From Sarea resinae (taxonomy: Eukaryota), in the NCBI GenBank assembly GCA_026026165.1, contig JAPEUD010000041.1, positions 1 to 64,000 of the forward strand: DNA of 64,000 nt, in the 5' to 3' direction. Made by a program: the position numbers and the translations under genes. The notes below the pieces were generated by a model. That model was given only the letters and a program-made list of their open reading frames with translations. It had not been told where the DNA came from and made no database searches. Of this stretch, positions 18,535 through 23,329 are shown in pieces. Each line of letters opens with the position of its first letter. Within the stretch, counting starts at the first letter, position 1.

Positions 18535-19935
18535 GACAGAACTCAAGAAAATGTGTTGTTGATCTGGCTGGAGGATTATTCATGGGCACCGCGATTGAGT
18601 CGTAGAGCTAAGCCTCGGAATTACGGGGCAGAGTCCCCAGAAGGCCCGCCGGATGGTTCGATGCTAGAAGCTGCAGCGCTTTCCTTATCTATCAAGACTA
18701 AAGCCAAGGATGTATGGGAAAATCGCAGTCGCTCGGCAACTCAAAGTAACGCTCTCTCGAGGCAGGGAGAGAATATGAAGATGCACTCAAAGGTTCGAAG
18801 ATGTAAACATATTTTTCTATCTGTCTTAGGGGTCTTCCGTACTCGACAGAACCAACGACAGGAGAAGAGGAGGGGTATCAACGGATCACGACGAGAAGAG
18901 GCTCGTGTGCCTCTGATCTGAGGAACCTGCCGGCAACAGCTCGGAAGGGATAAGATCATCTACTACGGCAGGGAGGTAGTGGAGTTTACGGAGCGCTCTA
19001 GCATGATGGCCTTGGGCTACTGGGGAGGTAGGAGACCCGTTGGCGTTTGGGCCGAAGTACGGGCAGGTAGGGAAAGATAAGGAACAACCTCCATCAAATC
19101 CATCGTCCTTTGAATCATGCACACGGCTCTGCTACCCCGAGCCCATTGCCCGAATTGTCTTGTCATCCATGGATCCATGGATGAGTGCGGCTCCATCAAA
19201 AGTCGCGGATATTGAGGATCGACTACTCTACTGTAGAGTACTCCATCGTAATACTCTGTGTACATACTCTACTCCGAGTAGTAGTGGGGTCTGAGGGTGC
19301 ATGGGGAAGAAGAATCAGTCCCTACGGAGTACTCTCTGCGCACGCACGTGATCAAAGCAGATCCGGTGTACGAATACTCGTCTTGCGTACCTCAGGGAAG
19401 TGGACGGAGCAAGGTACCTACCTTGCGGAGGACTTCTAGGGACTCGGGCTGACTGATCTTGGGCAGCCCTCGGGCAGGTACCTTGTGAGTCCACGGTGAC
19501 GCGGTGTGAGTCTGAAGTGACTGACCCTTGGTCTTTTGGGTGACGTCCCAATGTCCTTCGTCTCTAGGTACCTGAGGTACCTAAGGTACCTATAGTAACC
19601 AAGGTAGTACCTACTGCTGTACGAAGTACGAAGTACATGAGAATTTTAGCCCACACCCGCACCCACCACCACCACCTCTCGAACCATTGTTGCCCACCCT
19701 CTGCTGCCCCACAGCCATTTCTCACCACCGGAATTTATCTGGTGAGGTTGTCGTTGTTCTATTTGCCAAGCCTCTGCTTCTTCAAAACTTCCTTCGTTCC
19801 TGGCTCCCGCCCGTCTGGACACGACACGACCCGACCCTCTATTGTTCCGTCATATTGCGAGCCGAGAGGAGCACTCCTCGTTCAACTTCCCCCGCCTTCT
19901 GGCATTGCTGTCCTTTGCCTTCACTGTAGCCCAGC

Positions 19936-21404
19936 ATGAGTTCACAGCAGGCCAACGAGGCCGAGAAGAACATCGAGATATGGAAGGTCAAGAAGTTGAT
20001 CAAACGCCTGGAAGCCGCCCGAGGAAATGGAACCTCCATGATCTCACTCATCATCCGTGTGTGACCCTTGGTGCCCTGCCGTCGCCCACCGCCATACTGA
20101 CATGCATCTCTCACAGCGCCAAAGGATCAAGTCTCTCGATCGGCCAAAATGTTGGCGGAAGAATATGTAAGTTGCCCGCTGAGGAAATTATTTCGAGGAC
20201 TCGTGCTAATGTCAACAGGGCACGGCCTCAAATATTAAATCTCGAGTCAATAGGCTGTCCGTGCTTTCAGCCATCACCTCTACGCAGCAGAAACTCAAGC
20301 TCTACTCCAAGGTCCCCACGAACGGTCTCGTCATATACTGTGGTGAAATCATCACATCGGAGGGAAAGGAACGGAAGATCAACATCGACTTTGAGCCTTT
20401 CAAGCCAATCAACACGTCGCTCTACCTCTGCGATAATAAATTCCACACCGAGGCGTTGAGTGAGCTTCTAGAATCCGATCAAAAATTTGGTTTCATCATT
20501 ATGGACGGCAACGGTGCATTGTTTGGGACACTCAGTGGCAACACCAGAGACGTTGTCCATAAATTCTCGGTCGACTTGCCAAAGAAGCACGGTCGAGGTG
20601 GACAGTCTGCTCTGCGTTTCGCACGTCTCCGAGAGGAAAAGCGTCATAACTACGTCCGTAAAGTGTCTGAGTTAGCTGTCCAGAACTTCATCACCAACGA
20701 TAAGGTCAACTGTGCAGGGCTCATCCTCGCAGGTTCTGCTGACTTCAAGAATGATCTGAACCAATCGGACATGTTCGATCAACGTCTGCAGAGCAAGGTC
20801 ATCAAGGTCGTCGACGTCTCCTATGGTGGAGAGAACGGCTTCAACCAAGCTATTGAGCTGGCGGCAGAGACCTTGAGCAACGTCAAATTCATCCAGGAGA
20901 AAAAGCTAATTGGCAAGTACTTTGACGAGATTAGCCAAGATAGCGGAAAAGTCTGTTATGGTGTCGATGACACCTTGAAAGCTCTGGAGGCGGGAGCTGC
21001 CGAAACCCTCATTGTTTACGAGAACTTGGAAATCACTCGCTGGGTCCTCAAATCGTCGGCAGGCTCTGATGTCGTCATCCACACCACTAAGGCTCAGGAG
21101 TCAGACCGCGAACTCTTCATGGATAAGGAGACTGGCCAAGAGATGGAAGTCGTGGAGCAAGGGCCTTTCCTTGAGTGGCTCGCGGAGCACTATCATGAGT
21201 TTGGTGCCACCCTGGAGTTCGTGTCCGATCGCTCCAGTGAAGGCAACCAGTTTGTGAAAGGGTTTGGTGGCATTGGTGCAATCTTGCGTTACAAGCTCAA
21301 CTTTGAGCAGTTAGCTGATTTCGATGACGAAGACGAGTTCTACGATGGTATGTCAAATCTTCTAATTCGGAAGACCATATATGCTCATGCGCCATCTAGA
21401 TTGA
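19936..21404 (+). CDS. sup45: Eukaryotic peptide chain release factor 1 (eRF1)
   Basis: [42 protein letters not shown] and GGQ motifs. Introns at about 20057-20116, 20167-20218 and 21348-21399. Protein ends DEFYDD-TGA. Confidence 0.98.
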
Positions 21405-21591
21405 CGGTGTAGACACCTCGCAATGAGCGAGGAAGCCAGCCAAGACATCCCGTCCGGGGACGTACCGGTGGCTCCTCGCGAAGAGCGTCCACAGAACGCT
21501 CGTGGGGAGGAGACAAGGCCGGAGTCGCCTATGCGTTTCCGCGCCAGAATTTGAATGTGGCAATGTGACACTGGAGATCGTTGCGCGACTG

Positions 21592-21643
21592 GTAAGTGCG
21601 TTGAGGAGAAAATGAGTCATACATCATACTTATTACGCTACAG
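21592..21643 (+). other. Predicted 3'UTR intron of eRF1
   Basis: Consensus donor G|GTAAGT and acceptor CTACAG; 52 nt, the same size as other introns here. The branch site is weak (CTTAT). Confidence 0.7.
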
Positions 21644-21891
21644 ACCAAGACACGGCCGAACTGGAAGGCTGGAGCCTCGAGAAGAGCCTGTCAATCTTCG
21701 GCTTTCGACTTCTGGATTACAATGTATGCCGAATGGCCCATGATGGTGGAGTTGGCTGTCAAGGCCGGTCGCTATGTCCGTCTTGTCTGAGGCGATGGCC
21801 GGGTATCTCTGTGGATGAGCTGGCCTGGTTATTTGTTCCTCTCAGAATAGGATAGATGCGATATAGGATCAAGAAAATCGAGATTGATTGA

Positions 21892-21931
21892 TGACTCTTA
21901 CCATGCTACAAATGTGAAAATCGCGTGACTC
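21892..21931 (+). promoter_or_regulatory. Two TGACTC (Gcn4/CpcA-like) sites upstream of prephenate dehydratase
   Basis: TGACTC at 21892 and 21926, about 300 nt upstream of an amino-acid biosynthesis gene. Confidence 0.4.
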
Positions 21932-22215
21932 GATCCCCCAATCTAAACCCCGCAGGCGTGAACCTTGACAAGATACTTCTCCTGGTCGGTTGAGATTCAC
22001 CTTGATCTCAATCGCAAAGCTTTGTGCCTGATGTTCGTTCTGGGAACGGAAGTTGGATGCCTACCGTGTATAGTAGCATCGTGGGTAGGGCTCACCTCTG
22101 GGATTCCCTTTGACGATGCGACAATTCGACTTCCGACCACCAAACTTCTCCCTGCTCGGTAGTGTGTAGGCACCTATGGAGAACATCGCCCGCTGTGGAG
22201 CACCCAATTCTCCGC

Positions 22216-23329
22216 ATGACGAACGATAGCCGCTCTGTGGCCTATTTGGGGCCCAGAAACTCGTATTCACACCAGGTGAGTGTGCTCGTCGATAGAGACG
22301 TGCTAGCAGGTCCTCGTCTCGGAAGCATTTGTCGTTCGCTGACCACCCTGTCAAGTAGGCAACTCTAAAATACTTCCAGCATGAAGATTGTGCATTTGAA
22401 CCACAAGTCTCGATTCAAGGTTTGCAGATGATTTACTCCTAGCCTTTCAGATACGATTCCTAAGATACCATTGCTTAGATATCTTCGAGGCTGTCCAAGC
22501 CGAGACAGTGTGGCGGGGGGTGGTGCCTTTCGAGAACAGCACCAACGGCTCTGTAGTCTATACCCTGGACCTCTTCGCCGACCGTCAGAACCAATTCCCG
22601 AACATCTCGGTTTGCGGTGAGGTCTATCTCGATGTTCATCACTATCTGCTCGGCCATGCGCCGTCCTCCGAGCTACCTGCAGGACACGGCACGAGCTCTG
22701 AGCTGGGAGACGACCTGAAGCGGCCACTTACATCATTGGATAATATAAAGTACCTCTACTCGCATCCACAGGCCTTCGGCCAGTGCGAAGTGTTCTTATC
22801 GAGATACCTCAAAGGCGTCGAACGACAGGAAGTCTCGTCGACATCGAAGGCGGCTGAGCTGGTGATGCGGGACACGAGCGGAAGCAGCGCTGCTATCGCC
22901 AGCAAGATGGCCGGTGACTCACAGGGGCTGGACTTCCTTGCCAAGGATATCGAGGACAGGGAGGATAACACGACACGGTTTCTGGTTCTGAAGAAGGTTG
23001 TCGAACAGAAGGAGCAGATCACACGGCAGGGCGGGGGGCTGGACGATAGACGGCATTGGAAAACTCTTGTCTCTTTTACCATCGATCATCGAGTGCCTGG
23101 GGCATTGGCGGATGCTCTGATGGTGTTCAAAACATATGATCTCAGCCTTACAAATTTCAACTCGAGGCCGAGCGGTGTTGAGCCATGGAATTACATATTC
23201 TTCGTGGAGTTTGGAGGAAGTCGGCAAGACGATCCGCAAGGTCGTGTTGAGAGCGCATTACAGGATCTAGGAAGGATAGCTCGGGCATGGAGATGGCTAG
23301 GAAGTTGGAGGGACGAGTTGCAGAGATGA
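22216..23329 (+). CDS. pha2: Prephenate dehydratase, 3 exons
   Basis: VAYLGPRNSYSHQ|A..|DIFEAV..GVVPFENSTNGSV..YSHPQAFGQC..NTTRFLVL and a C-terminal ACT domain (NSRPS..WNYIFFVE). Confidence 0.95.

Follow-up and report, generated by a model that had tools for sequence, protein, structure and literature searches.

The gene for the release factor eRF1 (Sup45) lies on the forward strand of a 64,000-nucleotide stretch of Sarea resinae DNA (NCBI GenBank assembly GCA_026026165.1, contig JAPEUD010000041.1, positions 1 to 64,000), referred to throughout as the window. By analogy with plant eRF1-1 and Neurospora, the 3' end of this gene is probably a negative feedback device that combines stop-codon readthrough with nonsense-mediated mRNA decay (NMD). 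The coding region ends at a UGA in a leaky context (stop 1), which is followed by an open frame, a second stop codon in the same frame (stop 2), and a spliced intron in the untranslated stretch at the 3' end (3'UTR). A small RNA hairpin is found shortly downstream of stop 1, and the end of the peptide encoded between the two stops is conserved among relatives. The concentration of eRF1 sets how often every stop codon is obeyed, and its constancy is a basic question. The features of the 3' end, in window coordinates, are the following:

21348-21399, + strand: last coding intron, 52 nt, phase 1, within the final Asp codon, 5 nt before the stop
21402..21407, + strand: stop 1, leaky context UGA-CGG after GAU (from the sequence and relatives)
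21405..21551, + strand: readthrough extension, 49 codons (open frame; no Pfam family)
21416..21432, + strand: RNA hairpin of 6 bp, with 5' arm 21416-21421, loop 21422-21426 and 3' arm 21427-21432
21525..21551, + strand: conserved C-terminal module, the last 9 codons of the extension, with the final Ala-Arg-Ile at 21543-21551
21552..21554, + strand: stop 2, UGA-A, 37 nt before the exon junction
21592-21643, + strand: 3'UTR intron, spliced, 52 nt, GTAAGT..CAG (joint in RNA contig record 4)
21644..21895, + strand: remaining 3'UTR, at least to the end of the RNA contig

Stop codons, open frame and the 3'UTR intron

Relatives of the gene were collected by scanning metagenome contigs with the C-terminal 199 residues, which yielded 80 fungal eRF1 loci at 74-90% identity. 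Four loci with less than 330 nt after the stop (L034, L045, L048 and L075) were left out, as were seven duplicates recognized by their first 150 nt after the stop. The resulting set comprises 70 distinct sequences, namely the window and 69 loci, and counts out of 70 refer to this set.

Stop 1 of the window is read across a splice junction. The last coding intron has GT at 21348 and AG at 21398-21399, and its removal joins G21347 to AT21400-21401 as a final GAT codon, followed by TGA at 21402-21404 and CGG at 21405-21407. This spliced reading is confirmed by the relatives, because 39 of the 70 sequences lack the intron and read GAT-TGA-C directly, in an uninterrupted GAT/GAC/AGC-GAT-TGA-C. Across the whole set GAT-TGA-C is invariant (70/70). 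The triplet after stop 1 is CGG in 26 sequences, CAA in 17, CAG in 16, CTG in 5, CCA in 3, and CGT, CAT or CCT in one each, and T occupies position +7 in 61/70. According to parts of the text of Firth 2011 (PMC3159437), UGA-CGG and UGA-CUA make up the ‘Type II’ readthrough context.

The frame that follows stop 1 remains open for at least 48 codons in every sequence (70/70, median 73 codons), whereas the other two frames are open over that length in only 7/70 and 5/70 and have medians of 13 and 2 codons. One open frame of 49 codons is unremarkable when taken alone, with an arithmetical chance of about 1 in 10 at about 59% G+C. The 49-residue extension of the window matched no family when compared with Pfam.

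The GTAAGT donor of the 3'UTR intron (21592-21597) is located 187 nt past stop 1 and 37 nt past stop 2, and the CAG acceptor ends at 21643. RNA evidence comes from one public run, X1, a wood-decay metatranscriptome in the form of Logan contigs (word share 0.30), which was compared with the window over 19700-22300. Record 4 of these contigs (874 nt, depth 23.4) spans 20918-21346, 21399-21590 and 21643-21895. It contains two GT..AG joints of 52 nt each (21346/21399 and 21590/21643, cut +1) and so lacks 21348-21399 and 21592-21643; at the joint of the 3'UTR intron the shorter flank is 192 nt. Because record 4 lacks 21592-21643 and continues to 21895, at least 252 nt past the intron, the 3'UTR intron must be internal to the transcript and removed by splicing. 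Record 4 is about 98.7% identical to the window and differs from it at 11 of 874 letters (2/429 in the coding piece, 1/192 between the introns, and 8/253 after the 3'UTR intron). The difference inside the extension, A>G at 21496, alters codon 31.

An earlier note, made from the letters of this DNA, had placed stop 1, the 49-codon frame and its peptide, stop 2, the donor and the spacings between them, and all of these are correct on the sequence. Among the outcomes that it named as speaking against a regulatory layout were a lack of splicing at 21592 and polyadenylation upstream of that position. The joint in record 4 bears out the predicted splicing of 21592-21643, and the transcript runs on past the intron rather than being polyadenylated before it, so both objections are removed.

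In the relatives, introns after stop 1 were modelled with a scored heuristic for donor, branch site and acceptor. A heuristic that demands a canonical branch site misses the RNA-confirmed intron of the window, and the scored model was used instead. By these heuristic models stop 2 precedes the junction by 0-50 nt in 32/70 (class A), the open frame crosses the junction in 29/70, and no intron is predicted in 5/70; the position of stop 2 relative to the junction fits the rule for stops that do not induce NMD in 61/70. Stop 2 is more than 50 nt before the junction of the best model in 4/70 (L068, L072, L080 and L009). Inspection by eye reveals a weaker donor 14-25 nt after stop 2 in L068, L072 and L080, and L009 has an equal-scoring alternative donor 3 nt after stop 2. 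Of the 61 models, 60 place the donor 169 nt or more downstream of stop 1; the exception is the weak-scoring L040, at 76 nt.

Two pairs of near-identical contigs differ by a precise GT..AG segment. The segment that distinguishes L030 from L033 is 48 nt long, and its donor follows stop 1 by 179 nt and stop 2 by 29 nt. The segment that distinguishes L050 from L059 is 55 nt long, and its donor follows stop 1 by 183 nt; in this pair the open frame continues across the junction to a length of 98 codons. L033 and L059 are taken as transcript-derived contigs, the alternative being precise intron loss in DNA.

Among the 32 class-A loci, stop 2 is TGA in 15, TAA in 15 and TAG in 2, and the base after it is G in 20, A in 11 and C in 1 (a purine in 31/32). 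Judged from these sequences, stop 2 appears to be an ordinary, efficient-looking stop, unlike the frozen UGA-C of stop 1. In one clade (L057-L080) the bases after stop 2 are conserved too, GTTG coming directly after the TGA in 12 of 15 rows. The donors of the 3'UTR introns in this clade are weak or non-consensus.

The hairpin and the end of the extension

The hairpin of the window begins after an 11-nt spacer from the UGA and has a 5-nt loop. Folded alone it reaches -10.5 kcal/mol, and it is present in both the minimum free energy (MFE) and the centroid folds of 21400-21470. Among the relatives, a helix of at least 5 bp is found in the MFE fold of positions +6 to +40 in 70/70, compared with 33/70 and 45/70 in two downstream control segments. 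The mean MFE of +6 to +40 is -11.9 kcal/mol, compared with -7.2 and -8.3 kcal/mol in the controls, and the helix begins 9-11 nt after the stop in 57/70.

Pair counts for the hairpin were taken from an alignment of 68 rows (A1); another alignment (A2), which includes 13 reverse-strand echoes, was left out of the counts. The sixth pair in A1 is C-G in 48 rows, U-G in 10, U-A in 5 and unpaired in 5, and the other five core pairs are nearly invariant. One clade has two extra outer pairs, and the clade of L035, L037 and L048 has a different 5-bp stem at +14, three nucleotides further on. Loop lengths are 5 or 8 nt among relatives, a 3-nt difference that keeps the frame. Within the stem in A1, third codon positions are fixed, and variation falls on first positions, in the same codons or those next to them, so that residues change. 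This pattern is the reverse of that expected for protein coding and therefore points to a constraint on the RNA rather than on the peptide.

No Rfam family and no selenocysteine insertion sequence (SECIS) element was matched in the hairpin region (21200-22000) at E values up to 1. A covariance model built from A1 (R1) has its sole + strand match within the 64-kb window at the eRF1 stop; R1 also matches 67 loci, but these are its own training sequences. Two further blocks of conservation occur beyond the hairpin, inside the extension (window about 21447-21490, and the same region in many loci). A CCAGA block about 10 nt after the hairpin is at least 70% conserved in A1, and a block of the Leu-Thr-Ala-Pro-Arg type is located about 60-90 nt after stop 1. 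In several relatives the latter block includes a TGACGG, out of frame, that is reminiscent of the context of stop 1.

The extension peptides are poorly conserved in their middle part. Toward the C-terminal end of one clade, an Arg-Pro-Ser-Pro-Leu-Arg-Ser motif is invariant in 15/15 rows. These are 15 of the clade's 17 rows (L069 and L072, with the same motif and tails one residue shorter, were left out). The Arg, Pro, Leu and Ser codons of the motif vary synonymously, with four different Arg codons at one position. A Ser-x-Leu/Met-Arg core is found near the extension end in many other loci, the window included, and is sometimes encoded in the exon after the 3'UTR intron. Amino-acid conservation combined with synonymous codon turnover is a protein-coding signature, which indicates that ribosomes probably pass the UGA in relatives. 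Translation of the extension end in relatives is thus supported by sequence comparison, which here gives the best indirect evidence for passage of the UGA. The conserved peptide suggests that the readthrough product, or the nascent chain, has a job of its own.

The proposed feedback model, its precedents and competing explanations

The proposed feedback would work as follows. When eRF1 is plentiful, ribosomes would terminate at the UGA at 21402, and the exon-junction complex, expected about 20-24 nt upstream of the 21591/21644 junction, would remain in place and lead to degradation of the mRNA by NMD. At low levels of eRF1, the UGA would be decoded by a near-cognate tRNA, aided by the C at +4 and by the hairpin, which would be positioned at the mRNA entrance of the ribosome. 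The ribosome would then proceed to stop 2, 37 nt before the junction, where its leading edge would strip the junction complex. An mRNA stripped in this way would escape NMD and be stabilised, and more eRF1 would be made. The normally terminated protein of 434 residues would be the functional factor, and the extended form would be a by-product or have a side role.

Plant ‘RT-NMD 3'UTR’ elements consist of a leaky stop, an intron more than 50 nt after that stop, and a following stop placed where NMD is not triggered, as described in parts of the text of Nyiko 2017 (PMC5397192). All three elements are conserved across the 70 fungal eRF1 loci, with the spacing taken from the heuristic models. The published elements are thus kept across a broad set of uncultured fungi, and the window adds confirmation at the RNA level of a spliced 3'UTR intron. 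The earlier note had proposed the readthrough/NMD interpretation and had suggested a search among relatives for conserved UGA-C and a conserved distance between stop 2 and the intron; both are found, the latter by heuristic models. Its interpretation is supported by the parts of the layout that sequence can test, namely the leaky context, the spliced 3'UTR intron and the position of stop 2. The hairpin and the conserved C-terminal peptide were not in that note.

The circuit itself is already published for plants and N. crassa, and this locus is probably a further case. Kurilla et al. 2020 (FEBS Lett 594:3504) reportedly described autoregulation of N. crassa erf1 by readthrough and 3'UTR-intron NMD and are said to have proposed similar circuits in many fungi. 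The N. crassa case, as reported, shares with this one the gene, the kingdom and three elements (a leaky stop, a next stop near the intron, and a 3'UTR intron). Plant eRF1-1 also resembles the gene of the window in that the normal product is the functional factor, according to parts of the text of Nyiko 2017 (PMC5397192). The same source gives its stop context as stop-CAA-UCA (tobacco mosaic virus-like, Type I), in contrast to the UGA-CGG and hairpin found here, and adds that plants retain a second eRF1 gene type, which is unregulated; its text has no instance of the words hairpin or stem-loop. It also supplies a bacterial likeness, the +1 frameshift of release factor 2 (RF2, prfB), where a stop codon within the factor's own mRNA reports on how much of the factor is present. 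In RF2 recoding yields the functional protein, whereas in eRF1 normal termination yields the protein and recoding would only protect the mRNA.

The closest likeness for the hairpin is viral. Type II signals, in the sections of Firth 2011 (PMC3159437) that describe them, often combine UGA-CGG or UGA-CUA with a conserved stem-loop past a short spacer, a placement that fits the mRNA entrance. Their stems have at least 12 bp and span about 100-150 nt after a spacer of 7-8 nt, whereas the eRF1 element is a compact 6 bp after 11 nt and belongs to a cellular gene. At 11 nt from the UGA, a functional hairpin would stand as a cellular equivalent of these viral signals, and a rare one. Neither a conserved hairpin nor a conserved eRF1 extension tail, including one that resembles a signal of type 1 for targeting to peroxisomes (PTS1), was found in the literature searched, which missed most subscription papers. 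As additions to the known circuit, the hairpin and the extension tail may or may not be new.

Several points weigh against the feedback model or parts of it. The intron models in relatives are heuristic, and among models within 2 score points of the top the peptide-yielding one was preferred, which biases the motif count. Record 4 represents a close relative or another strain and is not provably from this isolate, and contigs speak to presence, not to the proportions of isoforms or the amount of mRNA. The hairpin is a small one, its spacer is longer than that of the viral cases, and the 71-nt fold of the window has a z score of -1.0, with 34 of 200 shuffles folding equally well. Covariation comes down to one pair and one divergent clade, because the five core pairs hardly vary. 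Averaged along its full length, the extension shows a weak signal by codon position, with a slight third-position excess (pairwise difference rates by codon position of 0.37/0.39/0.49, 0.17/0.21/0.21 and 0.35/0.42/0.44 in three clades). In addition, the feedback model does not need a conserved C-terminal peptide, and the conservation of one indicates an extra function.

Cryptic PTS1 signals exposed by stop-codon readthrough were reportedly described by Freitag et al. 2012. The extension of the window ends in ARI, and several other groups end in ARI, ARL, SRL or SKL. It is possible, if doubtful, that the hairpin programs readthrough and that the C-terminal module of the extended eRF1 ends, in the window's group, in a working PTS1 (ARI/ARL/SRL/SKL). 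All four tripeptides are listed by the PTS1 regular expression given in the text portions consulted of Stiebler 2014 (PMC4207609). This expression matches 15/70 extension ends, compared with 0.56 expected from 44 matches among 5486 internal tripeptides of the extensions. A simpler PTS1 consensus matches 16/70, and 16/19 of the extensions of 57 codons or fewer. SRL, SKL, ARL and ARI interchange among relatives, and synonymous changes affect the tail's codons for Arg and Leu. A maximum-likelihood gene tree was built from 570 nt of coding region in 67 rows (L017, L019 and L020 were dropped because an intron interrupts this region). The PTS1-like label requires 5 changes on this tree, at least 4 of them forced by well-supported branches, and because 5 changes are needed the tail appears to have been kept or regained in several lineages. 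On the tree the window pairs with L023, which ends in SML, a departure from the consensus by one residue. Since the rows are related, the 15 matches amount to a handful of lineages rather than 15 independent events. The remaining 55/70 have no PTS1-like tail (e.g., ends of the Ser-Val-Met-Thr-Ala-Ser type). The likeness to cryptic fungal and animal PTS1 signals, as presented in parts of Stiebler 2014 (PMC4207609), lies in a UGA readthrough extension that ends in a PTS1-type tripeptide; the cases there concern enzymes of metabolism whose extensions are short and whose stop has a UGA-CU context, and eRF1 or sup45 is not mentioned in the portions of the main text covered. If the PTS1 is functional, a small share of eRF1, set by termination efficiency, would go to peroxisomes or otherwise leave the cytosol, and a protein-level arm would be added to the mRNA-level feedback.

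These tails have a bearing on a rival explanation, in which readthrough serves chiefly to make a C-terminally extended eRF1 isoform, targeted to peroxisomes through ARI in the window's group, and the 3'UTR intron is secondary. The excess of matches under both consensus forms, the synonymous changes of tail codons and the recurrence of the label in several lineages speak for such an isoform, and readthrough-exposed PTS1 is an established fungal device in parts of Stiebler 2014 (PMC4207609). It is nonetheless rather unlikely: most relatives end otherwise, Arg, Leu, Ser and Ala are abundant in the tails, the matching sequences are not independent, no role can be named for a release factor in peroxisomes, and the extended plant eRF1 is reported in parts of Nyiko 2017 (PMC5397192) to be probably inactive in termination. 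The isoform could also coexist with the feedback model. By analogy with the AMD1 C-tail of mammals, the extension-end peptide might instead act inside the ribosome and slow release at stop 2, and paused ribosomes near the junction would clear the junction complex, or would queue and limit readthrough. The AMD1 readthrough tail is the precedent for such an arrest peptide (parts of PMC13025110). The motif is conserved as amino acids 5-12 residues before stop 2 in most relatives, whether stop 2 precedes or follows the intron, and the nucleotides right after stop 2 are conserved in one clade. The comparison remains one of analogy, as the peptide does not resemble a known arrest peptide in sequence, and in the window's group fewer and other residues follow the Arg; arrest is accordingly judged quite improbable.

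The feedback model must also be set against the view that the layout is incidental, an ordinary 3'UTR intron with a chance open frame behind a normal stop. The commonness of a single 49-codon frame at this base composition and the non-significant fold of the window alone would fit such a view. The frozen GAT-TGA-C, an open frame and a helix in all 70 sequences, the rarity of equally long openings in the other two frames, and the spacing of stop 2 in 61 of the 70 make it highly improbable. A UGA closely followed by a hairpin also resembles bacterial-type selenocysteine sites, and this likeness would favour decoding of the UGA as selenocysteine, with the hairpin as the insertion element. However, ascomycetes are not known to possess selenocysteine machinery, the search of 21200-22000 described above returned no SECIS element or Rfam family, and in every relative the UGA is where the functional protein terminates, which leaves this explanation next to no chance.

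The eRF1 gene and its surroundings

The remaining features of the gene, upstream of those listed above, are the following:

19936..21404, + strand: eRF1 (Sup45) coding region, with ATG at 19936 (sequence, frames, Pfam, and partly RNA joints)
19936-20056, 20117-20166, 20219-21347 and 21400-21404, + strand: eRF1 exons
20057-20116, + strand: eRF1 intron 1, 60 nt, predicted from the frame and from the spliced loose end of a relative at 20054
20167-20218, + strand: eRF1 intron 2, 52 nt, confirmed by RNA contig record 2

The spliced coding sequence of 1305 nt contains a single stop and encodes 434 amino acids that end in EDEFYDD. Exon 3 matches the Pfam families eRF1_1, eRF1_2 and eRF1_3 (E values of 4e-15 to 4e-48), and its neighbours in the ESM Atlas are eRF1 clusters only. 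Of the four introns in the eRF1 transcript, three measure exactly 52 nt (20167-20218, 21348-21399 and 21592-21643), and the fourth is 60 nt. Intron lengths of roughly 50 nt suggest a filamentous ascomycete.

The intron in the last Asp codon is present at an identical site in 31/70 sequences and absent from 39/70. Both states are scattered over the gene tree, so that the intron constitutes a presence/absence polymorphism at one site. If 21348-21399 is retained, the frame continues for 21 codons to a TAG at 21410-21412, and an unspliced gene call would thus yield a different and longer C-terminus. Automatic gene callers would place the end of the gene at the UGA or, for the unspliced form, at this TAG, and would omit the extension, the hairpin and the 3'UTR intron. 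The same TAG (21410-21412) was considered by eye as an alternative acceptor and rejected; its use cannot substitute for readthrough, because the frame is shifted and stops within the hairpin loop.

Five copies of GGTACCT are located upstream of the eRF1 start (window 19410-19600), three of which form a tandem array at 19567-19596 that repeats every 9 nt; a promoter element or a simple repeat could account for them. The next gene downstream, on the + strand at about 22217-23329, encodes prephenate dehydratase (Pfam PDT, E value 3e-44, with a weak ACT domain) and appears by eye to have at least two short introns near its 5' end. The distance from the end of the eRF1 RNA contig to the start codon of this gene is at most about 320 nt.

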